IMG/VR virus record: IMGVR_UViG_3300029258_002096
Span: 1-52,541 of that record
Strand: one strand, 5' to 3'
Length of the DNA stretch: 52,541 bases
Source of the DNA: a virus
Shown here: positions 1-52,541 of the stretch, in pieces
Layout of the letters: the number at the start of each line of letters is the position of its first letter
How positions within the stretch are numbered: the stretch's first letter is position 1
Notes under the pieces: model-generated
What the model was told of the DNA's origin: nothing
The model's database searches: none
Seen by the model: the letters and a program-made list of their open reading frames with translations, nothing else
Made by a program: the position numbers and the translations under genes

Positions 1-214
1 GATGCCAGAACTTCGTGGAATTGCTGATAAACTATCAAAAATGTTTAATGCACCTGATTATCCAAAACAAGGTGGGCCAGTAGAGGCTATAAAATTATTA
101 AATAGAGCACTTGATATTTTGGGGGAAGGCAGTTGCCGGTGAACCTATTAATAACCGGTGAGGTACACAAGATCAAAAATAACAATAGTGTGTAATATGC
201 TAAAAAGGTGATTT

Positions 215-481
215 GTGGGCACAAAATTTGATAAAATCATGAAAGTCAGGATTAATGGGGATGACAAGAGACTTTTCCGTGAAGCTTCAATTCATATTTA
301 TGGTGATGAAAGTTTGAGTAGATTTATCAGAGATGCTGGATTTGCGTTTATTGAACTAAAAAATGGTTTTGTTGAGCGAGAATTAGATAAAGAATATTTC
401 CCAACAGGGAGACGATATTTGAGGTTTATTAAGCCATACAAAAAAGGGAAAAGACGGAGACATTGGGAAGGGCAAACATAA
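215..481 (+). CDS. small ribbon-helix-helix/CopG-like DNA-binding protein
   Basis: N-terminal KVRINGDDKRLFREAS...LSRFIRDA has an RHH-like pattern; stop overlaps the next ATG (TAATG at 479-483). Confidence 0.45.
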   Translation: MGTKFDKIMKVRINGDDKRLFREASIHIYGDESLSRFIRDAGFAFIELKNGFVERELDKEYFPTGRRYLRFIKPYKKGKRRRHWEGQT

Positions 482-1224
482 TGAAAAAATATATTTGGTT
501 GATCGCTTTTATTTTGATTTCCTGCCAACCCGAAACGCCGGATACTCCGCCCGAGGAGCCGCCAGAGGAACCGTGTATCTGGGGAAGCCTAAGCTGTAAC
601 ATCATTGGGGATCCAACGAATGAGTTCAGCCTGAAAATGATCAATGAATTGAATTTGTCCGTTGATTCCATCGGCTTAGTATGTCTGGAAGGAAATTATC
701 CAGACCGGATCGATCAGGCTGTTTGGGGTGGCGAGCGGTTTTTTGGCAGAAACAACGACGGCGTGCGTGGGACACAATGGAGCCGACAGATCAATCTGGC
801 TCCGGGTGATAGCGTGCCGAACAATTACATTGAGTTGGATGGCACGGGCGAAGTGTTAATTTATGTTGTCATCAACACGTTGTATATTGAGCGAACTCTA
901 AGTGATACCGTCGTTTTCTGGGCCGAGCAGGATACCGCTCCACCCGACACCGTCGGTCTTGCATCGGCAGTGGTGAGTTGGGACCCAAACACGGAATCGG
1001 ATTTGGCGGGTTATCGGGTGTACTATGGATTGACGTCAGGCAAATATACGGTTTTTTTCGATGTCGGAGACGTCACCCATTTTCAAATCGACGGCTTCAG
1101 AAAAAACATAACTTACTACTTTGCCGTAACGGCCTACGACGAGAACGGGAACGAGAGTCCGTATTCAGTAGAAGTAGCGTGGCAATGGGGAGCAACTAAC
1201 GTAGAACTGAAAGGGTGGCTATGA
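481..1224 (+). CDS. lipoprotein with C-terminal fibronectin type III domain
   Basis: MKKYIWLIAFILISC lipobox-type signal; C-terminal VSWDPNTESDLAGYRVYYG...YYFAVTAYDENGNES is a typical FN3 pattern; start moved to ATG 481. Confidence 0.75.
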   Translation: MKKYIWLIAFILISCQPETPDTPPEEPPEEPCIWGSLSCNIIGDPTNEFSLKMINELNLSVDSIGLVCLEGNYPDRIDQAVWGGERFFGRNNDGVRGTQWSRQINLAPGDSVPNNYIELDGTGEVLIYVVINTLYIERTLSDTVVFWAEQDTAPPDTVGLASAVVSWDPNTESDLAGYRVYYGLTSGKYTVFFDVGDVTHFQIDGFRKNITYYFAVTAYDENGNESPYSVEVAWQWGATNVELKGWL

Positions 1225-1394
1225 ACAAAATGTGTGACTTTCACAACCCCCAAAAACTTGGATATTTACAATGGCATTCATGGGCCGAAGAAATGATAAA
1301 GAAGGGTGAAAAACAAAAGTATTGCCCCAAGTGCAAAAGATGGTTTTTTGATTGTGAATTTGGGGAAGCCAACAGGCAAACACAACATTTATAA
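1221..1394 (+). CDS. small Cys-containing phage hypothetical protein (57 aa, not in ORF track)
   Basis: Manual translation MNKMCDFHNPQKLGYLQWHSWAEEMIKKGEKQKYCPKCKRWFF...; ATGA overlap with upstream gene. Confidence 0.5.
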   Translation: MNKMCDFHNPQKLGYLQWHSWAEEMIKKGEKQKYCPKCKRWFFDCEFGEANRQTQHL

Positions 1395-1403
1395 GGCAAA
1401 TCA

Positions 1404-1772
1404 ATGCTTAAATATACCAAACAAGAGGTCATGCAAGAATTTTGGGGCTATTATCAAAAATATGGACATTGGCCGCGATATATCCCACAGGATACATTAA
1501 GCACTACATTTGTTTTTAGGGGGATAAAACGTTTTGGTAAACTATCAAAAGCTATTCAAGCGACAGAGCGGTGGCGTAAAAGACTGGATAGAGAAAAATG
1601 GTCTATCCCATGTGGAAGACAGCCCGACGATTTCTGGAAAGGTTGTTCCGATAGTCGATGTCATGCGAGGTGGCGATGTGAAATATGGCAAGGTGAAAAA
1701 GCTGAATTGGAAAGATTTAGAAAGAGCTTGAATATTAGTAAAAAAAGTATTATATTGAATGAGATTTATTAG
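1404..1772 (+). CDS. hypothetical protein, weak resemblance to homing-endonuclease-associated helical repeat
   Basis: ORF track; YYQKYGHWP...KRFGKLSKAI pattern; Cys-rich C-terminus. Confidence 0.4.
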   Translation: MLKYTKQEVMQEFWGYYQKYGHWPRYIPQDTLSTTFVFRGIKRFGKLSKAIQATERWRKRLDREKWSIPCGRQPDDFWKGCSDSRCHARWRCEIWQGEKAELERFRKSLNISKKSIILNEIY

Positions 1773-1789
1773 TTGAAAGGAGTGGGGTT

Positions 1790-1975
1790 ATGGAGAATGG
1801 TTATAAGTATGAAGATAAGGATGGAGATTTCTTAGAAGTGTATATTATTGGTGAGTTTATAGCATTTTGCATTAATGATGGTGATGAAATTTATGTTCCA
1901 CCTGAAGATGTTAGTAAAATTATTAAAAATATTGAAAATGTGGGCAGGGAGGTTGAAGAAAGAATCTCTAAATAA
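1790..1975 (+). CDS. hypothetical protein
   Basis: 61-aa ORF with upstream AAAGGAG RBS. Confidence 0.5.
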   Translation: MENGYKYEDKDGDFLEVYIIGEFIAFCINDGDEIYVPPEDVSKIIKNIENVGREVEERISK

Positions 1976-2062
1976 GCCGTCCGCCCTAAATTTAGCATAA
2001 GCCGCGCGAAGGCATAGAAACAAATGCAAATATTTGTTATGTGCCGAAACGAAAGGGGTTTT

Positions 2063-2335
2063 ATGAAATTGAGAGAATACACAGATGAACAGATAGATAA
2101 ATATGGGAATGATTTTAACATAGATGTAATAAGAGAGGCTAATATAGATTTTAAAGAATGGTATGATCATAAAAAGTATCTTTGGAAAAAACCAACTAAA
2201 GATTTACCATGCCAAATATGTTATGAATGGCGGAGATTTCCAAAAGGACAAAGACATTTTGGGTATGCTTGGTGGAGAATTTGTAGTAAGGAATGTACGT
2301 GCTCCCACCATAAAGAAGAAGTGTGGATGGCATAG
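2063..2335 (+). CDS. cassette-encoded hypothetical protein
   Basis: ATG 2063 after AAAGGGG RBS, inside cassette 2036-2344; stop just before the inverse core site. Confidence 0.65.
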   Translation: MKLREYTDEQIDKYGNDFNIDVIREANIDFKEWYDHKKYLWKKPTKDLPCQICYEWRRFPKGQRHFGYAWWRICSKECTCSHHKEEVWMA

Positions 2336-2337
2336 GC

Positions 2338-2444
2338 ACATAACGTCTGTCATAATGTGCCGGTGGAGTTGTGAGGCTGAACCCGATTTCGGCGGATCTC
2401 TTCCTCGGTACAGGGCGGGGGTCACATTCATGACATTGTTATGC
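2338..2444 (+). other. attC-like site (107 bp)
   Basis: ACATAAC...TGTCATAATGTGCC pairs with GG[T]CACATT[C]ATGACA...GTTATGC; two unpaired bases 6 nt apart. Confidence 0.85.
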
Positions 2445-2478
2445 GGCGAAACGAAATTATAAAAAGGAGAAAATTGCA

Positions 2479-2736
2479 ATGTATGACTACAATGTTGAGA
2501 AAAAAAAGATATTTACGGATGAGGGACAACGTGAGTTTTTGAAAGTTAGAGATAAGGCAAGACAGCTTCTGGATGAGGGTGGGGCATTCATGATGTTTTC
2601 TGCGCTTACGGATATTTCCGGTGACACATCATGGACAATGATGGCTTATGTTGACAGGCTTGTTGAGCTTGGTGAAATACGTGAAATTACAAAACCTGGG
2701 GTTGCGGGGCAAGACCGAGTTTTTGTAGCCGCATAA
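2479..2736 (+). CDS. cassette-encoded hypothetical protein
   Basis: AAAGGAG RBS; stop TAA lies within the inverse core GCATAAC. Confidence 0.75.
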   Translation: MYDYNVEKKKIFTDEGQREFLKVRDKARQLLDEGGAFMMFSALTDISGDTSWTMMAYVDRLVELGEIREITKPGVAGQDRVFVAA

Positions 2737-2948
2737 CGTCAATGCTCTGCGGTGAAACGGCGGGGTAAGAGAAAGGATAAAAAAATGGAATTTCCAGAAA
2801 TTGATAGAAAATCATGGTTTTATCAGAATTGCAAGCGTAATCGCAGGGTTGGTGCAAAGTGCTGTGATGTATGCCCTTTTAAGGAGGGTATTGAAGATCA
2901 GGAAAGCGGTGTTGGGCGGGTTTCATCCGTAGCAGCAACGGGTTATGC
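2731..2948 (+). other. expanded attC-like site with 161-bp loop containing a gene start
   Basis: Left arm TGCTCTGCGGTGAAAC 2743-2758 pairs with GTTTCA[T]CCGTAG[C]AGCA 2920-2937; GCATAAC/GTTATGC ends. Confidence 0.75.
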
Positions 2949-3147
2949 CGGGCCGGGCAGTGAGGAAGGGACGGGCTGGCGGCTTACTGACGAAGAAAAG
3001 CCGATGGAAGAAGGATACAAAATGTGTTCAAACGGAAAAGGATTGTTACCATTTTTCGCTATGTACAGGGACGGTAATTTTTATCTTGACATGGAATTTA
3101 CTATACCGAAATACTGGCAAGAATTACCTAAGCCGCCAGAGGCATAA
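2785..3147 (+). CDS. fusion protein: Cys-rich N-terminus plus DUF551-like C-terminal domain
   Basis: WRLTDEEKP...YWQELPKPP is a DUF551-type W..P/W..LP.PP pattern; frame runs through the attC right arm; ATG 2785 follows AAAGGA. Confidence 0.65.
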   Translation: MEFPEIDRKSWFYQNCKRNRRVGAKCCDVCPFKEGIEDQESGVGRVSSVAATGYAGPGSEEGTGWRLTDEEKPMEEGYKMCSNGKGLLPFFAMYRDGNFYLDMEFTIPKYWQELPKPPEA

Positions 3148-3343
3148 CGCTAATTATAACCGGCTTGAGGCCGGGAGGTAAAAATGGATTGGGAACAGAT
3201 AGTTCAAGAAATGCTTAGTTGTTATTCAAATAAAAAATATTGGTATAAACATTTAGTTGGAAGAAAATGGGATATTGTAAAAGTTGCAGAGCATTTGCAA
3301 AAAAAGTTTGGTGGGGCAAGTCCGGTTCATAATCAAGTTATGC
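3142..3343 (+). other. expanded attC-like site with 149-bp loop containing a gene start
   Basis: ATTATAACCGGCTTG 3153-3167 pairs 15/15 with CAAG[T]CCGGTT[C]ATAAT 3317-3333; GCATAAC/GTTATGC ends. Confidence 0.8.
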
Positions 3344-3519
3344 CTGGCCGGGAAGATGCGGAGCGGAAGGGCAATCAGGGCGATATAATTGTCGGCAAGT
3401 ACAAACTTTGCGCTCATAATGCCGAAAACGGGCAAGTATGGCTTAAAGTGTGTAAGACTGGCGAAGGCGTTTTGCTCGGAGAGAAAGAAATTGAAGAATT
3501 ATATTTAAAACATTTTTAG
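3184..3519 (+). CDS. hypothetical fusion protein spanning an attC right arm
   Basis: GGAGG RBS; ASPVHNQVMP segment is encoded by the attC arm. Confidence 0.65.
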   Translation: MDWEQIVQEMLSCYSNKKYWYKHLVGRKWDIVKVAEHLQKKFGGASPVHNQVMPGREDAERKGNQGDIIVGKYKLCAHNAENGQVWLKVCKTGEGVLLGEKEIEELYLKHF

Positions 3520-3530
3520 CCCTGATTGGG

Positions 3531-3607
3531 GCATAACGGCTTGCGTTTAACCGGCAGAGGCAAGGACGTGGGCAGGGTGGCTGTCCGTGTTCTAACGCTG
3601 GTTATAC
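3531..3607 (+). other. attC-like site (77 bp)
   Basis: GCATAAC; GCGTTTAACCGGCAG vs CTG[T]CCGTGTT[C]TAACGC; GTTATAC. Confidence 0.8.
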
Positions 3608-3646
3608 GGGTTTGCCCTTTACCCTAAAAATATAAAGGAATGAATT

Positions 3647-3958
3647 ATGTGTAAACATAAAAGACTTGAATTGCGGGGGCATATCAGACCCGAAAATTTA
3701 TCAAAAAATGATATGTGGATTTCGGATTTATCTTTGGTTTGCATGGATTGTGGAGCACATTTATTGTATACCCCTAACAACCTTAAAAATATTATTAATA
3801 TTCCACATCCAGATAAATCTAATTGCAAACACCCATCAAATGTATTATCCTATGATTTGTGTGGTTTCGGAAGATGGACGTGTCTACAATGTGGGGAAAG
3901 AGGTATTTCATCTCCAGCATCTAAATTGGAGATAAGAACCTCTTGCAAACACGTATAA
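3647..3958 (+). CDS. cassette-encoded Cys/His-rich hypothetical protein
   Basis: AAAGGA RBS; CKH, CMDC and CLQC motifs; stop within inverse core GTATAAC. Confidence 0.7.
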   Translation: MCKHKRLELRGHIRPENLSKNDMWISDLSLVCMDCGAHLLYTPNNLKNIINIPHPDKSNCKHPSNVLSYDLCGFGRWTCLQCGERGISSPASKLEIRTSCKHV

Positions 3959-4021
3959 CGGACTGGTAATAACCTGAAAAACCGCTACACTGAATTTTAG
4001 GTTATTATACAGACGTTTAAT
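3953..4021 (+). other. degenerate attC-like site
   Basis: GTATAAC; GTAATAACCTGAAAA vs TTTTAGGTTATTATAC; right core degenerate (GTTTAAT). Confidence 0.5.
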
Positions 4022-4198
4022 TAATGGATGGGAATTCCAATTGATATATGATAATATTGGAGATTATTGCAAGGAGGAAACTACCTTATTTAAGCTGTGC
4101 CCTTTTTGCGGGAAGCGTTTTTAATCAAAACGGTTGAAAATAGATAGGTTGTGGAAGTATGGAAATCCGTAAAACGAGAAGTAGTGGGGTGTAAGAAT

Positions 4199-4609
4199 AT
4201 GAAATATACTCAGGAAGTTGTTGATGCTATTGTAGCCAGCCTAAGAGAAGGCGTACCCATAAAAAAGGTATGCGATCTTGTGGATATTAGTGAGGAAACA
4301 TTTTATGCGTGGCAAAGAGAAAAACCTGAATTTTCTGAGGTTGTAAAAAAAGCGCGTGCTGATAAAATAAAAGATATTTTAAGCCATATACGTACAGCGG
4401 GTGTGGGTGAGACAAGGGTACAAGTTCAGTGCCCGGATTGCAAGGCTAAATTTGAAACAACAATCACTTTACCCACAAAGGCGTGGCAGGCATTAGCATG
4501 GATACTTGAACGAACGGAGAACGAGGACTTTGGACGTAGGTATCAAGTAGGCGGAGGCAAGGAACCCATTAAACATATTATAGAGTTTGTGGATGGAGAC
4601 GATACATAG
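4199..4609 (+). CDS. terS: terminase small subunit
   Basis: N-terminal HTH (IKKVCDLVDISEETFYAW...PEFSEVVKKAR), AWILER motif, overlaps terL; start set at ATG 4199. Confidence 0.85.
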   Translation: MKYTQEVVDAIVASLREGVPIKKVCDLVDISEETFYAWQREKPEFSEVVKKARADKIKDILSHIRTAGVGETRVQVQCPDCKAKFETTITLPTKAWQALAWILERTENEDFGRRYQVGGGKEPIKHIIEFVDGDDT

Positions 4610-5882
4610 GATAGTCATTCCTGGTTATACAAATCCCAAAACTGGAAAGAGACACGAAGAACAAAAGCGATTCGTTGAAAGTGCCACTAAAAGGAAAATC
4701 GTCAAAGCTGGAAGGCGTGGTGGCAAAACTATTGGGTGTGGGAAAATAGCATTACATGGGTTTAGAGATGGAAAGAGGGTATTATATGGAGCTCCTACAG
4801 TAGAACAGGTAGGGGCTTTTTGGCATTTCATTAATACGGTTTTAGAGCCTGTTATATCAGAGAAGATATTATTCAGGGACAAGAATTTACATATTATTGA
4901 AGTGCCAAATACGGATATTAGGATAAAGGCTAAAACGGCTTGGAATGCAGATACACTAAGGGGTGACTGGGCGGATATACTCATTCTTGACGAATTTCAA
5001 TTAATGAATGAAGACGCCTGGGAGATTGTTGGTGCTCCGATGCTTTTAGATAACAATGGTGATGCTGTTTTTATTTTTACCCCCCCAAGTTTTAGGATGA
5101 GGGGGGTTACTAAAGCCTTTGATCCCCGCCACGCTTCTAAAATGTTCAAAAAAGCACAGAAGGATACATCTGGTCGCTGGGAAGCATTTCATTTCACGAG
5201 TTACGCAAATCCATTTATTGACGAACGGGCCCTTGACGAAATTGCTATAGATATGACCCAACTTGCCTATAAGCAAGAAATCTTAGCCGAAGACATTGAT
5301 GACGTTCCCGGAGCCCTGTGGACACAAGCAATCATTGATAATACAAGAGTCAGTGAAGCACCAAGAATGAAAAGAATCGTTGTAGGTGTCGATCCCCAAG
5401 GAAAAAAGAAAGATTCATCGGAAACGGGTATTATTGTTGCTGGACTTGGGTATGATAATCATGGATACGTTTTGGCGGATTATTCTATTAATGCGAGACC
5501 GGAGGGGTGGGCTGAAAGCGTTACGCAAGCTTTTGAGGAAAACGAAGCAGACAGAGTTATCGCAGAAAAGAACTATGGTGGTGATATGGTCAAGAGTGTG
5601 ATTCAGTCAGCGGGGCCTAATTTACCCGTTAGATTGATAACAGCATCACGGGGCAAGACAATACGGGCCGAACCCATATCATTCCAATATGAAGAGGGAA
5701 ACGTACACCATGTTGGCATATTCCCAAAATTGGAAGATGAAATGTGTACCTATACACCCGGCAGCGGCTGGAGTCCCAATAGGATGGATGCCCTTGTTTG
5801 GGCGTTAAAGGAATTGTTACCCATAAAAGGCAGGGTATCTTCTTCTCCTGTCAAACTTGGTGAACCAAGACCCATAGATTAA
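4593..5882 (+). CDS. terL: terminase large subunit
   Basis: Walker A AGRRGGKT, Walker B ILILDE, nuclease VGVDP and NRMDALVW. Confidence 0.95.
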   Translation: METIHRIVIPGYTNPKTGKRHEEQKRFVESATKRKIVKAGRRGGKTIGCGKIALHGFRDGKRVLYGAPTVEQVGAFWHFINTVLEPVISEKILFRDKNLHIIEVPNTDIRIKAKTAWNADTLRGDWADILILDEFQLMNEDAWEIVGAPMLLDNNGDAVFIFTPPSFRMRGVTKAFDPRHASKMFKKAQKDTSGRWEAFHFTSYANPFIDERALDEIAIDMTQLAYKQEILAEDIDDVPGALWTQAIIDNTRVSEAPRMKRIVVGVDPQGKKKDSSETGIIVAGLGYDNHGYVLADYSINARPEGWAESVTQAFEENEADRVIAEKNYGGDMVKSVIQSAGPNLPVRLITASRGKTIRAEPISFQYEEGNVHHVGIFPKLEDEMCTYTPGSGWSPNRMDALVWALKELLPIKGRVSSSPVKLGEPRPID

Positions 5883-5919
5883 GAAGGGGGTTATTATAGA
5901 TACCAAATTAAATCAGGGG

Positions 5920-6141
5920 TTGTTAAACCTTGCACAACATATTACAAATATGTGCATAGAGGATTTGAGTGGAGATTCAAATAAATGGAATGTAGTCGGT
6001 GTTATTATTCCAGATGATACATTATTGGCAATTGTGAAATATGATAATGGGAAACAGGCAAGAATTACTGGATTGTGGGCATCTAAATTGAAGAGACTAA
6101 GTTGTGGGGATGGGGTTGATGATTCCGTCTCTGAAAAGTAG
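5920..6141 (+). CDS. hypothetical protein
   Basis: ORF track; start uncertain. Confidence 0.4.
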   Translation: MLNLAQHITNMCIEDLSGDSNKWNVVGVIIPDDTLLAIVKYDNGKQARITGLWASKLKRLSCGDGVDDSVSEK

Positions 6142-6176
6142 CCGCCATAACAAATAGCTGAAGAAAGGAAAATGAC

Positions 6177-6374
6177 ATGACAGCAGGGGTAGAAAAGATT
6201 TGGGCTGTATATAAAAGATGTTGGCCGAATAGAATTGTGGCTTTATATAAGGACGAAGAAGCCGCATTAGAACATTCTAAAATCAGGAAAAATTACAAAA
6301 CAGAATGTTGGGCCGTATTTGAGAATTGTGACCAATCTATGGAATATTACATATGGAATATTAAAAATAGGTGA
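6177..6374 (+). CDS. hypothetical protein
   Basis: AAAGGA RBS; 65 aa. Confidence 0.5.
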   Translation: MTAGVEKIWAVYKRCWPNRIVALYKDEEAALEHSKIRKNYKTECWAVFENCDQSMEYYIWNIKNR

Positions 6375-6590
6375 GGAAAAGTTTTTGATCTGGTTAAAAT
6401 AGTGAAAAGGGAAAATGCGCGAAACAACCAAGGTGAGGCATGATGAAATCCGCCATGTGTTAGAGGGGCGGATAGAAACATTAAGGCAGCGTGGCGTACG
6501 TGATTACGTCCGGCGGGCTTGTGAGGATTTGTCCAAAGAGGTCGGCTATACAGCGAGGACATTAAGGGATTGGTACTATGAAATCTAATA

Positions 6591-6884
6591 ATGGAGCAAT
6601 GTTTGAAGATGAACAAATATAAAAAAATAAAAGAATGGATGTCTGAAACAAATAGCAGTAGCGGGTTAGTCAGTGGTGGGAATCAGGGAAAGGGTGGGCC
6701 ACAAAATGCGGGTGGGGTATGTAAATGGACATATCGAACACTTGGGGATTATGACCCATATCATACAACAAGTTGTGGAAATGATATAACATTACATCAG
6801 GGTTGTGAATGGGTTGAAACAGATTATAAATTCTGTCCTTTTTGTGGCAATAAAATTGTGGGGAAGCATTTTGTGTGTGGCTAA
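6591..6884 (+). CDS. Cys-rich hypothetical protein (CKW...TSCG...CPFCG) fused across an attC right arm
   Basis: TAGCAGTAGCGGGTTAGTC at ~6653-6671 resembles the right arm at 2930-2948; stop in GGCTAAC 6879-6885. Confidence 0.6.
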   Translation: MEQCLKMNKYKKIKEWMSETNSSSGLVSGGNQGKGGPQNAGGVCKWTYRTLGDYDPYHTTSCGNDITLHQGCEWVETDYKFCPFCGNKIVGKHFVCG

Positions 6885-6954
6885 CGCCGCCAATAACCAG
6901 GCGGCTGAGGAGCGGAGCGACGAAGACGATCCGCGTTAATTAGCCTTGTTATGT
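6879..6954 (+). other. attC-like site (76 bp)
   Basis: GGCTAAC...AATAACCAGGCG...GGAGCGGAGCGACG...TCCGCGTTAATTAG...GTTATGT; classic attC layout with GCGGAGCG centre. Confidence 0.8.
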
Positions 6955-7290
6955 TTTTACTTTGGAGATAACGATGATTAGCAAAAAATTTGGGGAAGAT
7001 TTTAACAGCACCCGTGGCGCACTTACCTTGGATGTTTCAGAAGTAACGGACTCCGATGCTACGGGTGGAGTCCATACGAAAACACACGCAGACGGATGGA
7101 CAATTACAGGTGAAGTACACGAGGACTATTACACATGGGTTAATTCATTTAGTGCCACACACCCTGAATACGGAACGGTGGCTGGTGACTTTGAAGATGA
7201 AGTAACGGCAACCTCTGAGGAAGGGTTTAAGCACTTCTGGCAGCACCATCGGCCTACTGAGTGGGACTATAGTAATATTTAAAACATAAC
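6948..7290 (+). mobile_element. integron-like gene cassette between terL and portal
   Basis: GTTATGTTTT 6948-6957 is the exact reverse complement of AAAACATAAC 7281-7290. Confidence 0.8.
6974..7282 (+). CDS. cassette-encoded acidic hypothetical protein
   Basis: GGAG RBS at 6964, ATG 6974; fills the cassette. Confidence 0.75.
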   Translation: MISKKFGEDFNSTRGALTLDVSEVTDSDATGGVHTKTHADGWTITGEVHEDYYTWVNSFSATHPEYGTVAGDFEDEVTATSEEGFKHFWQHHRPTEWDYSNI

Positions 7291-7369
7291 ATAAACGGCA
7301 TGCTTTAATGAAAAGAAATTAGGGCAGGATTGTAAATATTTTTTCTATACGTTATTTGCGTATACTTGC

Positions 7370-7398
7370 TTGACAAATTAATAATATAATATTAAATT
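7370..7398 (+). promoter_or_regulatory. putative sigma70 promoter upstream of portal
   Basis: TTGACA 7370-7375, 17 nt, TAAATT 7393-7398. Confidence 0.5.
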
Positions 7399-7438
7399 AA
7401 TATCCGTTGAATGTTATCCTAATTCGGCGGAGTTTATT

Positions 7439-8791
7439 TTGGATATAAACATCTCGACTCGCCCCTTCAAGGTAAGATTGCGAAAACCCCAACCCCCTAA
7501 ACCCCAAAGACAGGCATCTGCAACATCGCAGACACGGGAAACCTACGAAAGTGGAATATCTATATTTAATGCCTATAATCCCCTGAAACACAACATGGGG
7601 GCCTACCGTGAATTGAGGGAAAAAATACCCTTCTTCAATGTAGCCATAAAGAAACTCGTACAGCTTATTGGTGACCCGATATTTGATTCTCCATCCGATT
7701 CCGTAAAAAAGAAAATAGAAGACTTTGTTCAAAAAGTTCAGGTAAATCGCTTTGGCAGAGGATTGGGTTCTTTCTTAGACGAATTAGAGGATTCAGCTTT
7801 TGAAGTGGGTGGTGGTTGGGGAGAACTTGTACCAACAAAAACAATGACAGATGTTCATCGTTTGAAAATAGCCTCTGCCGAATCTATGTGTTTTATAAAA
7901 GATGAAAAGACGGGCGAACTTGTTATCGGCACTTATAAAGACAATCATTTTATGCCACTGCCTGTTGAAAATATGGATTTGATTTATTACTTGGCTTTTG
8001 ATCGAAGACAGGGACATCCGCAGGGTTATAGCTTGCTTTATTCTTGTATGTGGCCGAGCCAGGCATTTTTGCGATGGGAAAAATCCTTTGAAAATCAAGT
8101 GCAGAGATTCGGGGATATATCTCTCGTCGGTGCTTTTGCCCCACCCGAGGGTGGAACCGTTGAGGAAGCAGATTATACAAGAGATAAATTCATGGAGCAA
8201 TTGGGTAAACTTTCAAAACTGAAAAGGCGCGGGAATGTAACCGATATCGGATTAAGTATACCGCCTGGTGGTACGTGGGATATAAAAACATTGGGCGCAG
8301 ATGCAAAGTTAATAGCAACCAAAGATTCCGTCAGAACGCTTTTAGAGCAATTGATCGCAAATACCGGCCTTCATCCTTCGTCCCTGGGAGTCCATTGGTC
8401 TACCTCCGAACGTATGTCGGTAATGCAAAATTTATTGCTAATGTCTAATCTCAACGCACAACGGGAACGGATCAATCCAATTGTTGAAAGAATTATCGAT
8501 ACCATGTTGGAGCTTACGGGTGATGCTGGAGCAGAATGGAGCATGAAATGGCCTGAAGTTATGTTATTGGGGGAAACCGAACGAGCCGATGCAAAAAAGA
8601 GCAATTGGGAAGCCATTAAAAATATGCTTGAAGCTCTTGAAATGGCTATTGCCTACGGATGGGCTGATGAAGAAAGTGCAAGGGAAACATTGGACAGAGA
8701 GGGTTTTGACGTAACTAAGTTACCGTCTAACTGGTATGCAAAGGTCAAAGAAAGATCGTATTTAGCAAGAATGGCAAGGGAAATAGAATAG
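7439..8791 (+). CDS. portal protein
   Basis: 450 aa between terL and gp7-like gene; TTG start with CGGAG RBS; size and synteny. Confidence 0.8.
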   Translation: MDINISTRPFKVRLRKPQPPKPQRQASATSQTRETYESGISIFNAYNPLKHNMGAYRELREKIPFFNVAIKKLVQLIGDPIFDSPSDSVKKKIEDFVQKVQVNRFGRGLGSFLDELEDSAFEVGGGWGELVPTKTMTDVHRLKIASAESMCFIKDEKTGELVIGTYKDNHFMPLPVENMDLIYYLAFDRRQGHPQGYSLLYSCMWPSQAFLRWEKSFENQVQRFGDISLVGAFAPPEGGTVEEADYTRDKFMEQLGKLSKLKRRGNVTDIGLSIPPGGTWDIKTLGADAKLIATKDSVRTLLEQLIANTGLHPSSLGVHWSTSERMSVMQNLLLMSNLNAQRERINPIVERIIDTMLELTGDAGAEWSMKWPEVMLLGETERADAKKSNWEAIKNMLEALEMAIAYGWADEESARETLDREGFDVTKLPSNWYAKVKERSYLARMAREIE

Positions 8792-8822
8792 GGGGGAATG
8801 GAATGTCAACAAGAAGAGGATA

Positions 8823-9029
8823 TTGTTGAAAAATAATTTAGGACAGGAACATAGAGTTTGTAAAAAATGTCCTATTCATCATGTAGAAAACTGTACCACC
8901 TGTTTTGGGTTTGGATTAAAAATTGTTAAAAATCGACAAATACCAATACGATGTGGTGAAGCCTGTGAACCGAAAAGATTGTTGAATTATCAAATTGTGC
9001 AATGTCCGGAGTGTGGTGGGCTTGCATAG
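8823..9029 (+). CDS. Cys-rich zinc-binding hypothetical protein
   Basis: CKKC, CTTC and CPEC motifs. Confidence 0.45.
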   Translation: MLKNNLGQEHRVCKKCPIHHVENCTTCFGFGLKIVKNRQIPIRCGEACEPKRLLNYQIVQCPECGGLA

Positions 9030-49415: not shown

Positions 49416-49530
49416 TATCTCTTATTATATATTTTAAATTATTGTAGATATTAGATGAGCTAAAGCTCAGGAGAAAAATAATGGATAAAAAAGATGGTTG
49501 GTTGATAACCATTAAAACAACTGCGAATAA

Positions 49531-49600
49531 ATATAACGCCGGGATCACCGGCAGGAAGGAGCGGAGCGCATGACTGTCCGTGTGAATCCCGATGTTATAT
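49531..49600 (+). other. attC-like site (70 bp)
   Basis: ATATAAC; GGGATCACCGGCAG vs CTG[T]CCGTGTG[A]ATCCC; GCGGAGCGC centre; GTTATAT. Confidence 0.8.
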
Positions 49601-49992
49601 GTCCCGCGTGCGGTTGGCATGGTCCGCTGACACAAACCGACAATGGGGTCTGTCCACGGTGTGAATATGAGGTAAACGGCGGCGAGCCCTACAGGCTGAT
49701 GACGCTAGCCGAACTTCGCGAGTCAGAACATGGGGCCACATGGTGTGATGTAGACATGCGCGAGTTTCTGCGCGCGGTGGCTGAGGTAGAAGCAGATAAC
49801 GTCAAGCGTCAGGTAGCCGTCTCGCGTCGGCAGACCAACAGCGCTCGTGAACGCGGCCCTTCATGTTGTAGCCCTCCATCCGCTTGTTCGGCATGCCCTA
49901 CGTGTGGCCGCAGCAAGCCGGATTGGGCGGAGTATTGCTCTGAGGAATGTCGCTATGAGGACGAAACGGGGCATCCTGGTTGTGAATACTGA
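49570..49992 (+). CDS. Cys-rich ORF reading through two attC-like sites
   Basis: ATG inside attC 49531-49600; CPACG, CPRC and CPTCG modules. Confidence 0.55.
   Translation: MTVRVNPDVICPACGWHGPLTQTDNGVCPRCEYEVNGGEPYRLMTLAELRESEHGATWCDVDMREFLRAVAEVEADNVKRQVAVSRRQTNSARERGPSCCSPPSACSACPTCGRSKPDWAEYCSEECRYEDETGHPGCEY
49794..49892 (+). other. degenerate attC-like site
   Basis: AGATAACGTCAAGCGTCAGG...GCCCTCCATCCGCTTGTTCGGC; left part parallels 50384-50402. Confidence 0.55.
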
Positions 49993-50022
49993 GCGTCAAC
50001 TATTCGAGAATCTCGAACAGTT

Positions 50023-50080
50023 GCCGAACGGTTAGTTTCAGCGGTGCGCTTTTTGCATCCGCTGCAAACTTTTGTTATAC
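50023..50080 (+). other. attC-like site (58 bp)
   Basis: AGTTTCAGCGGTGC 50034-50047 pairs 14/14 with GCA[T]CCGCTG[C]AAACT 50055-50070; GCCGAAC/GTTATAC ends. Confidence 0.9.
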
Positions 50081-50107
50081 GGCGAACTTAACTAACAGGA
50101 GAAAACA

Positions 50108-50389
50108 ATGGAAAACAATAATCACTTAACACTTAAATGGGGCACACTGAAATCATGGAACTTTAAAGGCAATGAAGAAGCGTGCAAATTATTAAAACGT
50201 TACGGGGAAATCGGTTCATCATTCTCAGCGATGGCGCAAAATGATACGCCAGAACAAAAGGAAATAATTTGCAAGTTAATAGATTTGACACCAGGAGAAA
50301 TATATCTTGATTGGGACGGTGAATACGTTTCAAAAGAAAAAGCAAAAGAATATGTAATGAATTACGGCAAAGAAAAACAAGCCGTATAA
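50108..50389 (+). CDS. cassette-encoded hypothetical protein
   Basis: AGGAG RBS; stop inside GTATAAC. Confidence 0.8.
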   Translation: MENNNHLTLKWGTLKSWNFKGNEEACKLLKRYGEIGSSFSAMAQNDTPEQKEIICKLIDLTPGEIYLDWDGEYVSKEKAKEYVMNYGKEKQAV

Positions 50390-50440
50390 CGTCAAGGGTC
50401 AGGCGCGGCTTTAGCCGTCGCCTGAATCCGCTGGTTCGGC
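50384..50440 (+). other. attC-like site (57 bp)
   Basis: GGGTCAGGCGCGGCT vs AGCCG[T]CGCCTG[A]ATCC; GTATAAC/GTTCGGC ends. Confidence 0.85.
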
Positions 50441-50469
50441 TCCGGTTGGACTGGTGGAGGAGAGGACCA

Positions 50470-50976
50470 ATGAATCCAAAAGAAACACAACGCCGAGAAG
50501 AGATTGGTAAGATCGTTGCCAGCCTTGAACGGTTTGGGAAAATAGGCTGGTGGCAATTTGCGGCCTATCAACAGAAGAAATGGAGATTTGAACTTATATT
50601 ATATGTTATTGATATACTTTACGAAACAGAAAACTTAAGGAGGCGTATCCAGCATTTAGTTGAACAAAAAGAAATGGGCCAACTATACGGGGCGCTGACT
50701 TATTTTATTGATAAATATGCCGGAGAATATTCGGAGACACAGGGTCAAGAACAAAAGCAAGCCGCAAAGGAATGGGCCGACAAAATAGATATACCCATCG
50801 GCCAAAATCTTAAGTCAGACGATCAAATCCGGCTTGAAGGAGAACTTAAAAAACGCCAGCAGAGAGCGGATCAATATTTGCAGGACGGGGACATACATGG
50901 ATACAAAGACCTAAAGCGACAAATAAATAAAATAGAAATCCAGTTGAAGCGAATGGAAAAGCTTCAAAAATTTTAA
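50470..50976 (+). CDS. helical hypothetical protein
   Basis: GAGG RBS; ATG 50470. Confidence 0.6.
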   Translation: MNPKETQRREEIGKIVASLERFGKIGWWQFAAYQQKKWRFELILYVIDILYETENLRRRIQHLVEQKEMGQLYGALTYFIDKYAGEYSETQGQEQKQAAKEWADKIDIPIGQNLKSDDQIRLEGELKKRQQRADQYLQDGDIHGYKDLKRQINKIEIQLKRMEKLQKF

Positions 50977-51011
50977 GGAGGTACTGTTATACGTTTTCTT
51001 AGGAGGACTGA

Positions 51012-51425
51012 ATGGAAAATATACCTGAAAAAATATATTTACAAGTTGACCCTGAAAATGAACAACCAGAAAGTTTTGATGATTTGGCGGAAATAACATG
51101 GTGCAGAGATAAAATTAATGATAACGATATTGAATATGAATTAAGCGGGGTGGAATCGGGTCAGCTTGATATATTGTTAGCTGCCCGTTGTGCCACTTGT
51201 AAGCATTGGGGAGGGGATAAAAAACAATTAATGAAAGTACTTAATGAATATGATATTGAAACTATAAAAAAATATTTAGATGTTAAAGAAGGATGGGCAA
51301 TAGATGGAAAATGTAAAGAATTAATATGTGAATTAATATTTTATGCCTATGGGGCAGGGGTTGATGAAGTAGAGACACCTGCTGGTTTTAGCTGTAATCT
51401 TTATGAATCAGATAAGGGCAGCTAA
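51012..51425 (+). CDS. fusion protein spanning an attC right arm
   Basis: N-terminal IPEKIYLQ...TWC...DIEY module plus cassette module CATCKHW...; stop in AGCTAAC. Confidence 0.7.
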   Translation: MENIPEKIYLQVDPENEQPESFDDLAEITWCRDKINDNDIEYELSGVESGQLDILLAARCATCKHWGGDKKQLMKVLNEYDIETIKKYLDVKEGWAIDGKCKELICELIFYAYGAGVDEVETPAGFSCNLYESDKGS

Positions 51426-51616
51426 CGTCCAGTAATAACCGGCTGAAAGGACTAAGTGATGGATAGAAATCAAGTTATTGAAATTTTGGCAGAATTGCGA
51501 GAAACGGCAGATTACTTACCTACTGACCAAAAATATTTGGATGCTCTTGAACACGCACAGAACTTATTAGAAGAGGGCGGTGCGGAGCAAGGTCCGCGTT
51601 CTGCCGATGGTTCACC
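51420..51616 (+). other. expanded or hybrid attC-like site containing a gene start
   Basis: left arm GTAATAACCGG, right arm GG[T]CCGCGTT[C]TGCCGATG then GTTCACC; arms pair only partly. Confidence 0.5.
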
Positions 51617-51812
51617 AGTGGATGTGCCTGGGGAAAGTGCGGGACTTCAAGACGGGGTGGTGGCTATTGAAAAGAAATTACTTGATACAATTTACGCACA
51701 GATAAAAGGTGTTATTGATAATATGGAACTGCATCCAAAACAGTGTGGATATAAGTGCGCCCTATATGATACTTTTGAAAAATTGAAATTAATTTATGGG
51801 GTGGAGTCTTGA
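51456..51812 (+). CDS. fusion protein spanning an attC right arm
   Basis: GPRSADGSP segment encoded by the arm. Confidence 0.6.
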   Translation: MMDRNQVIEILAELRETADYLPTDQKYLDALEHAQNLLEEGGAEQGPRSADGSPVDVPGESAGLQDGVVAIEKKLLDTIYAQIKGVIDNMELHPKQCGYKCALYDTFEKLKLIYGVES

Positions 51813-51816
51813 AGTT

Positions 51817-52046
51817 GGTGAACGTTTAGGTTCATGTGCCAAATGGAGGACAAAATGAAGAAAAGGAAAATTTGGAATCGTTGTATTTATTGCGGCAGGT
51901 TTATTGGATTGGGTGAGTTTATGAGGGGTGAGGTAGAAACTGATTTTACACCAGACACTCACTTTACATACGAAAAAATTGAACATTATCACAAAAAATG
52001 TAAAGAAGAATGTGGGGATTTGGTCACGTGCTAACTTTGGTTATGC
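51817..52046 (+). other. expanded attC-like site enclosing a whole ORF
   Basis: GGTGAAC; GGTTCATGTGCC vs GG[T]CACGTG[C]TAAC; GTTATGC 52040-52046. Confidence 0.6.
51855..52034 (+). CDS. small Cys/His protein inside an attC loop
   Basis: GGAGG RBS; RCIYCGRFI...HKKC. Confidence 0.65.
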   Translation: MKKRKIWNRCIYCGRFIGLGEFMRGEVETDFTPDTHFTYEKIEHYHKKCKEECGDLVTC

Positions 52047-52049
52047 TTA

Positions 52050-52382
52050 GTGAATACCGGCCACAAGCCGGTGCTTATGAATGGCCAAAGGGCCAGAGGA
52101 GCGAAGATGAACGATAGATTAGACTGGCAACACAAGGGTGGGGTGCTTGACATACCAGATAGACATTTTGTCTATAATGTAAACTTTGATGCTGATGAAC
52201 CTTACATAACAATTGTTGATGCAGAAGATCCTCACACTGAAGAAAAAAAGATGTTAGTACCGAAGTCACTCGCATACTATTTAAGCACGCATGCTTGTGG
52301 ATCACGGAAAATGATGGAGAATTTTATAGAGCAAGGACGGCATGAGGTGCGGGTGGGGTTTCAAAGGCTATTGGGATTATAG
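52050..52382 (+). CDS. hypothetical protein (probable cassette gene)
   Basis: follows GTTATGC core; followed by truncated attC-like CACTAAC...ATAACCGGCAAAAAC...GTTTTTG[T]CC 52395-52437. Confidence 0.6.
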   Translation: MNTGHKPVLMNGQRARGAKMNDRLDWQHKGGVLDIPDRHFVYNVNFDADEPYITIVDAEDPHTEEKKMLVPKSLAYYLSTHACGSRKMMENFIEQGRHEVRVGFQRLLGL

Positions 52383-52457
52383 GCCCTTTGGCAACACTAA
52401 CATGAATAATAACCGGCAAAAACAAGCGTTTTTGTCCAAACATAAAGGAGATGAGCA

Positions 52458-52541
52458 ATGAAAAGTAAGGCCGCAAAGTTAGCGTTTTTGTCCGTGTTCG
52501 TTATTGGGTTATTCGGCATTACGGGGTGTGGCGAAAAGAAC
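52458..52541 (+). CDS. lipoprotein, truncated by window end
   Basis: MKSKAAKLAFLSVFVIGLFGITGC lipobox. Confidence 0.6.
   Translation, partial: MKSKAAKLAFLSVFVIGLFGITGCGEKN

Follow-up and report, generated by a model that had tools for sequence, protein, structure and literature searches.

Do the small genes packed against the packaging module of a tailed phage travel as integron cassettes and, if they do, how are they oriented and which enzyme moves them? The question is raised by a stretch of viral DNA, IMG/VR record IMGVR_UViG_3300029258_002096 (52,541 nucleotides; hereafter the window), in which five small open reading frames (ORFs), interspersed with hairpins, lie directly upstream of the terminase gene terS. 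The window corresponds to G000:C10:4936-57387, where C10 is a 57.4-kb contig in a genome bin of 2.38 Mb and 129 contigs. The 4.9 kb of C10 that precede the window are referred to here as L086, and an ENA contig from a second assembly of the same phage as L087. Samples of both sediment and seawater contain this phage. The window is phage-like along its whole length, and every large ORF is on the + strand.

Our analysis indicates that positions 2021-4021 are likely the terS-proximal end of a large integron-type cassette array of this phage, in which the units are reversed and are served by an IntI-type (integron integrase) recombinase acting in trans. An earlier, sequence-only reading had proposed five contiguous cassettes upstream of terS. 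The chain turned out to be real and uninterrupted, and it lies essentially where that reading had placed it. The internal order of the cassettes is a different matter, as described below.

The hairpins between the genes are attC-type sites

We constructed a covariance model, R1, which was trained solely on eight short sites of C10 and had seen no bacterial attC. Three sites misaligned by MAFFT (h2314, w3953 and w6879) were left out. The AAC and GTT triplets within the paired R boxes are invariant in all eight aligned sites, as they are in all sites compared for complementarity. The RNAalifold consensus consists of an R helix containing AAC and GTT, an unpaired spacer, an L helix of 12 pairs and two bulges on the 3' arm. 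Compensatory changes are present at 9 of the 15 pairs overall and at 9 of the 12 pairs of the L helix. Pairing holds in 86.7% of cells. The figure for shuffles is 64%, none of the 500 coming as high, and sliding the partner columns gave no more than 46%.

On C10, R1 produced 16 matches at E < 1, all of them on the + strand and four within 2335-3610. The eight training sites score 50-75 bits and the other eight 12-36 bits, with scores on the - strand not exceeding 9.5. Moreover, R1 recovered all seven attC sites of the class 1 arrays of phage P1 MH445380 (estX-psp-aadA2-cmlA1-aadA1-qacH plus dfrA; E from 4.5e-7 to 3.5e-4) and exactly the three published attC sites of Tetrasphaera phage TJE1. 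It found nothing at E <= 0.01 in the rest of the 2.38-Mb bin and nothing at E <= 1 in 867 kb of phage loci related by TerL. Since a model trained on the phage sites alone detects the attC sites of class 1 arrays and TJE1, the C10 sites are members of the attC structural family. Inverted pairs of GTT...AAC 10-mers are also in excess, numbering 9 in the window compared to 1.9 in shuffles (shuffle maximum 5). Two other approaches, a home-made arm-alignment scan and an energy-based scan for AAC...GTT hairpins, were dropped, as they did not separate C10 from the contigs of the putative host.

The sites of the five cassettes differ in build. Those preceding ORF3 and ORF4 are expanded, and the loop of each encloses the ribosome site, the ATG (at 2785 and 3184, respectively) and about 50 codons of the gene, with arms that fold at -15.1 and -14.6 kcal/mol. 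Both genes read through the L''/R'' arm into a Gly/Ser/Pro-rich linker. A sister of the ORF3 site is found at L086:1898-2116, and it shares the expanded coding-loop build of the ORF3 and ORF4 sites with the duplicated unit described below. The mini-site preceding ORF1 has no L boxes and no R1 match; its 10-nt R'' box, GTTATGTGCC (2036-2045), is the exact reverse complement of 2335-2344. The terminal hairpin at 3953-4021, likewise without an R1 match, is probably a degenerate attC and may be inactive. Its 5' box completes the own-end repeat of ORF5.

The polarity of the sites is reversed

When folded, the bottom strand of attC displays extrahelical bases at positions 16 and 23/24, separated by a 6-bp stem, on the arm opposite the AAC that is cut (Nivina et al. 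2016, PMC5027507). The bulges of the phage consensus occupy alignment columns 96 and 89. Counting from the GTT end, these correspond to positions 16 and 23; six pairs separate them, and the bulged bases lie on the arm opposite the + strand AAC. We also read the bottom strand of the aadA1 site directly. From AAC it passes through a 6-nt spacer, the L' arm and the loop to T; 6 bp then lead to G, and a further 3 bp and a 5-nt spacer to GTT. The + strand of the phage sites has the same layout, in which T, 6 bp and C (or A) are followed by 8 nt to GTT; T23 is conserved among the sites. In TJE1, the class 1 arrays and two bacterial contigs (G045:C21 and G019:C179), the strand matched by R1 is the one opposite to the genes; on C10 it is always the gene strand.

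The phage coding strand thus corresponds to the bottom strand of canonical attC, which means that the polarity of the sites is reversed. Hence each attC goes with the gene that lies downstream. The order initially read from the letters (core, ORF, inverse core, attC) is wrong: the polarity is the opposite at every site, and the boundaries of a duplicated unit agree. The supposed inverse core behind each gene is in fact the R' box, which we expect to be cleaved at AA↓C (the arrow denotes the crossover) and not at G↓TT past the hairpin.

The two bacterial contigs belong to genomes of the putative host family, and their attC sites match R1 at 33-34 bits (G045:C21:1051-3334, locus L096, and G019:C179, locus L094). 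Their genes have the canonical arrangement. Of the two G045 sites, one has C at base 16 and the other has A. One array adjoins a transposase-like ORF, and no integrase is present on these short contigs.

A recent duplication delimits the mobile unit

The boundaries of the unit can be read from a recent duplication of a single cassette. A block of 395 bp is present twice on C10, at 1510-1904 and 4685-5079, 3.2 kb apart, and the copies are 100% identical. The identical stretch runs from the TAAC of the upstream site to the GAAC that belongs to the unit itself. The two copies have the hairpin upstream of the gene in common, whereas the hairpins downstream differ. The encoded 116-aa protein reads through its own attC arm and is an orphan, with no relative in IMG/VR. 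In Logan contigs from four runs the repeat forms a separate unitig at about 40x; the sequence on either side is at 17-19x, and window position 144 is a fork in the assembly graph. Repeat depth about twice that of both flanks, together with the fork, shows that one genome carries both copies.

The mobile unit is therefore C + attC + gene + ...AA, cut at AA↓C within the TAA stop of the previous gene. According to this rule the five units span 2021-2343, 2344-2736, 2737-3147, 3148-3536 and 3537-3958. That the stop codons of ORF2, ORF3 and ORF5 are the TAA of ...ATAAC had been pointed out before and is indeed what the sequence reads. In single-gene units on C10, the R'' and R' boxes of the same unit are complementary over 8-10 contiguous nt, compared to mostly 3-7 nt in the hybrid sites formed with neighbors, two of which reach 6-9 nt where adjacent boxes are alike. 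Each of the five genes is bracketed by its own GTT.../...AAC inverted repeat (10, 10, 8, 8 and 8 nt in order, the last matching at 14 of 15 positions). Such own-end complementarity is the classic signature of passage through a circular form.

L086 is a continuation of the same cassette array. Both ends of C10 fall within cassette sequence, and the contig is not closed. The array probably runs from about 49.5 kb of the window across the gap into L086 and up to 4021, and would then measure 12 kb or more. Its second stretch, at 49528-52517, within which the contig ends, has five R1 matches, three of them strong. One of its sites, at 51814-52049, is 236 nt long and has a loop that encloses a complete 59-aa ORF.

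Each mobile unit thus comprises C, attC, ribosome site, gene and ...TAA, so that the hairpin stands before its gene and the crossover is placed at AA↓C, usually in the gene's own stop codon. Taken together, these features suggest the following mechanism. Units would be excised as circles and then reinserted by an IntI-type tyrosine recombinase provided in trans by the host or a co-resident element, and this enzyme would act on the folded coding strand. The genes would be promoterless and read through by phage transcription proceeding into terS. No excess of promoters was found in 1-7500.

Table 1. Cassettes, sites and adjoining genes at the terS-proximal end of the array (positions in the window)
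Feature	Position	Strand	Details
Second copy of duplicated 391-nt cassette (C10:4688-5078), right end	1-144	+	Identity ends at AAC 142-144
Truncated mini-site	2015-2042	+	28-nt remnant; AAC 2019-2021, GTT 2036-2038; left end of ORF1 cassette
ORF1	2063-2335	+	90 aa; C-terminal Zn-binding-type domain, CxxC...GQRHFG...C.C.HH
attC-type site	2338-2444	+	107 nt; ORF2 cassette; R1 75.3 bits on + strand, 8.1 bits on - strand; DNA fold
ORF2	2479-2736	+	85 aa; TAA stop inside R' box GCCGCATAA↓C
Expanded attC-type site	2731-2948	+	218 nt; ORF3 cassette; R1 full-length, 27 bits, E 2e-4 (2728-2951)
ORF3	2785-3147	+	120 aa; Cys-rich N-terminal half; ends in TAA of GGCATAA↓C
Expanded attC-type site	3142-3343	+	202 nt; ORF4 cassette; R1 31.3 bits, E 2e-5 (3139-3346); inverted-repeat pair
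ORF4	3184-3519	+	111 aa in the window
attC-type site	3531-3607	+	77 nt; ORF5 cassette; R1 62.5 bits; DNA fold
ORF5	3647-3958	+	103 aa; several CxxC pairs; stop is TAA of CGTATAA↓C
Terminal hairpin	3953-4021	+	69 nt; AAC and GTT ends, symmetric internal loops, no bulges; DNA fold, z -3.4; last before terS
terS	4199-4609	+	Pfam Sf6_terminase, 1e-8
terL	4593-5882	+	Pfam Terminase_6C, 1.8e-10

Search for a recombinase and alternative explanations

Which enzyme could act on these sites? [quoted passage not shown] It is not a complete integron, in which intI adjoins the array. A number of observations weigh against an integron-type array served in trans. Neither C10 nor the bin encodes an integron integrase: the best match to TIGR02249 reaches 87 bits against a cut-off of 265 and lies off C10. 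A search of 115 host-order genomes was likewise negative, and just 2 of 401 genomes of the host phylum have one above the cut-off; it should be kept in mind that the genome bin is a putative host, and that host order, family and phylum are putative throughout. Base 16 of the sites is C or A, never the usual G. The + strand forms 23 G:T pairs versus 2 on the - strand and folds better by 1.7 kcal/mol on average, but G is enriched on this strand throughout the contig (GC skew 0.18), and this bias is not independent evidence of polarity. At the population level, we detected no joints at the five sites in the contigs of the four runs (region 1-9000), contigs being prone to hide rare variants. Two "between" joints listed there were disregarded as 18-23 nt matches from low-depth contigs. 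Finally, 12 contexts of ORF1, ORF2 and ORF5 homologs in other phage contigs have no R1 site at E < 0.1.

Could the sites have ordinary polarity after all, such that each gene is followed by its own attC, crossover takes place at G↓TT 3' of the hairpin and the - strand recombines? The motif RYYYAAC...GTTRRRY is symmetric, stops within ...TAAC are common in ordinary cassettes, and own-end complementarity fits this arrangement just as well as the reversed one. However, R1 matches canonical attC in the bottom-strand sense only and this phage on the coding strand only, the arm opposite the + strand AAC is the one with the bulged bases, and the duplicated unit has its hairpin upstream of the gene while the downstream hairpins differ. 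We therefore consider ordinary polarity very improbable. The idea that the true cassette genes are on the - strand was likewise rejected, as only short ORFs occur there, and the + strand ORFs have homologs and confident folds. Just as hard to credit is an explanation that takes the hairpins for common intergenic elements of RNA or DNA, such as processing sites, attenuators or terminators, that resemble attC by coincidence and separate genes fixed in place. It would agree with hairpins that are transcribed with the genes and stand just before ribosome sites, with the lack of population variation at the five sites and with homologs elsewhere that have no hairpins. On the other hand, it leaves unexplained the cross-detection of known attC, the own-end rule and the exact AAC-to-AAC duplicate. 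Moreover, the hairpins have no T-runs, the sole terminator-like match in 1-7500 is on the - strand, and phages with related terminases lack the hairpins.

A better candidate, still unlikely in our judgment, is another recombinase that moves, or once moved, attC-derived hairpins: either a Xer-type enzyme working on folded single strands, as in CTX phage integration, or an unrecognised phage protein. The absence of IntI from the contig, the bin and the 115 host-order genomes would be expected, as would C or A instead of G at base 16, and the bin does encode three tyrosine recombinases, none of them on C10 and two Xer-like as judged by length. Yet both bulges and the spacers are spaced exactly as IntI1 needs, R1 detects class 1 sites, and IntI1 accepts phage attC from integron-less hosts (PMC9892861). 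Nor did C10 itself offer a candidate: a Pfam scan of 30 C10 proteins turned up no recombinase, and PF00589 has no match on this contig, which is not closed. An IntI acting in trans appears to us the most economical reading, because the sites have the exact IntI geometry; some of them may still be active.

Products and homologs of the cassette genes

Each of the five ORFs is preceded by an AGGAG-like ribosome site. The initial description of their products as small proteins of unknown function, some of them Cys-rich, was borne out, with three being Cys-rich. None of the five has a family match in Pfam, PHROG or PADLOC. The genes are real, as ORF1, ORF2 and ORF5 have homologs, and ORF1 and ORF2 have confident folds.

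In an alignment of ORF1 with 47 representative homologs, the C-terminal Cys/His domain is common to all. The AlphaFold model of ORF1 is of high quality (predicted local distance difference test, pLDDT, 93.8) and has no fold match in PDB. The ORF2 family is larger, with at least 239 small-protein homologs. Its model (pLDDT 94.1) is a winged helix, for which PDB yielded weak winged-helix matches and a viral match with a template modeling (TM) score of 0.82. Homologs of ORF2 reside in phage early regions, either beside ERF, RecT or YqaJ genes or after a divergent helix-turn-helix gene. As modeled, ORF2 is a small winged-helix protein from a large phage early-gene family, and it is probably a DNA-binding regulator.

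ORF3 is an orphan without a homolog among proteins of near length. For ORF4, the protein atlas gave no usable match, and no function can be assigned. The end of this gene differs between assemblies. L087, identified by an exact-protein look-up of TerL that returned only the same phage, is identical to C10 except for one indel: the run of five T at window positions 3513-3517, also present in C10, has six T in L087. The extra T moves the end of ORF4 from TAG to the TAA of the R' box, adding six residues to give 117 aa. ORF5 has four homologs (52-64% identity) in densely packed phage-like contigs, and its protein atlas leads are only weak. ORF1, ORF3 and ORF5 are probably small Zn-binding proteins.

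A role of these genes in phage defence or conflict, also suggested by the sequence-only reading, found no support: the defence and family searches were empty, and ORF2 is predicted to be a winged-helix protein of a kind common in phage early regions. The same reading had set as its own refutation homologs without any association with attC and an invariant gene order in related phages. This test turned out half negative, none of the 12 contexts mentioned above having an attC site. The cassette structure in this phage is nevertheless unaffected, because it rests on the sites and the duplicated unit. The cargo looks like ordinary phage accessory genes that are packaged as cassettes in this phage. 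As to gene order, relatives of TerL in IMG/VR are at most 58% identical and all lack the sites, leaving no close relative for comparison.

Comparison with known systems

CALINs have been reported in phages: 10,705 genomes yielded 17, and part of the sites are recombined by IntI1 (PMC9892861). The locus resembles that of Tetrasphaera phage TJE1 (Qi, Rajabal, Ghaly, Tetu, Gillings 2023, PMC9892861) in having attC-type sites that are detected by R1 and lie among small tailed-phage genes, with no IntI. The cargo is of anti-restriction type in both, represented by DNA methyltransferases in TJE1 and by a Mom-family gene here (L086:898-1512). However, TJE1 has three sites, its genes are on the top strand, and attC follows the gene. 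Here, there are at least 16 sites with bottom-strand geometry on the coding strand, attC precedes the gene, and two sites hold the gene start; the array abuts terS, and more sites are located between terL and the portal gene. Thus, attC sites and CALINs in phages are already known, whereas the reversed unit design, the coding attC loops and the size of the array are new. We found no description of reversed cassettes in phages in the integron literature searched.

With class 1 cassettes such as aadA1, aadA2 and cmlA1 the phage units share the AAC of R', the 6-nt and 5-nt spacers, the L boxes, T23, the 6-bp stem, an extrahelical base 16 and the 8 nt to GTT. They also share complementarity between the ends of each cassette, as opposed to the ends of its neighbor, and a tight packing of promoterless units. 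They differ in that the gene is inverted relative to the site and that C or A takes the place of G at base 16. No intI accompanies them on the contig, a Pc promoter and an attI (for which no general model exists) are apparently lacking as well, and loops reach about 160-180 nt and encode protein. A canonical cassette, with the gene on the top strand, attC downstream and crossover at G↓TT, is therefore not what is found here. Long arrays, many small unknown genes, duplicated cassettes and related attC sites are also features of sedentary chromosomal integrons such as those of Vibrio. Those integrons, in contrast, are chromosomal, attached to IntI and composed mostly of co-oriented canonical cassettes. 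The reverse-oriented cassettes known so far are mainly toxin-antitoxin units with their own promoters. Small accessory genes bracketed by hairpins next to the packaging module are likewise known from the "moron" or hyperplastic regions of phages, including the promoter-stem-loop modules of T4-like phages. Such modules have no AAC and GTT boxes, bulge geometry or own-end rule, and are thought to move by homologous or illegitimate recombination.

Integrons are the textbook system of bacterial gene capture, and the orientation of a cassette relative to its attC is held to be essential for expression. A tailed phage whose accessory genes are almost all reversed attC cassettes, and which has no integrase of its own, suggests that integron-type recombination also shapes phage accessory genomes. 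Published surveys would miss the reversed design or assign it the wrong orientation, because they assume that the gene comes before its attC. The array also offers substrates for questions of strand choice, among them short sites, coding sites of 200 nt and sites that have C at position 16. The origin of cassettes is another question to which this locus may speak, through cassette and non-cassette copies of the same gene families. The families of ORF1, ORF2 and ORF5, which are those of ordinary phage early genes, occur as cassettes here and as non-cassette relatives elsewhere, so that this phage may show how new cassettes arise.

It is possible, if in our estimate a little short of an even chance, that phages keep a cassette pool of their own, a mirror image of the bacterial one, in which attC precedes the gene and the coding strand recombines. 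If so, the recombining strand would be the non-template strand and, for co-oriented genes, the lagging-strand template, such that phage transcription or replication would expose the site. The crossover would lie inside the stop codon, and some genes would start within the attC loop. Placed in a bacterial integron, phage cassettes would be silent, and those of bacteria would be antisense when carried by the phage. This mismatch would keep the two pools apart even if they had an enzyme in common.

Other sites and cargo along the contig

Several further features lie in or near the array. At its left, past the AAC of the duplicated cassette, only a 5' half-site remains at 138-175 (AAC, spacer, ...TAATAACCGG), without a 3' arm, and the 1.9 kb at 145-2020 have no recognisable sites. 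On the other side of the five cassettes, between the last hairpin and terS, a short frame at 4086-4124 ends in LCPFCGKRF and a stop. It resembles the C-terminus of the protein encoded by a Cys-rich ORF at 6591-6884 and may be the remnant of a lost cassette. The latter ORF ends in GGCTAA↓C and is followed by a weak attC-type match at 6876-6957 (12.6 bits). This site falls between terL and the portal gene; cassette sites are therefore also present within the structural module.

Two cassette-borne genes of L086 could be assigned to families. The Mom-family protein encoded inside the array (Pfam PF25680, 1.3e-28) belongs with the relatives of the DNA-modification protein of phage Mu, which counters restriction. 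The cassette at L086:3586-4370, in which own-end complementarity extends over 8 of 8 positions, encodes a DUF5131 protein of the phage Gp37/Gp68 type with a CxxxCxxC motif. In the early region of the phage (40518-41623), the gene of a pentapeptide-repeat protein (PF00805, 1.4e-47) comes after that of a pyrimidine-dimer DNA glycosylase (PF03013).

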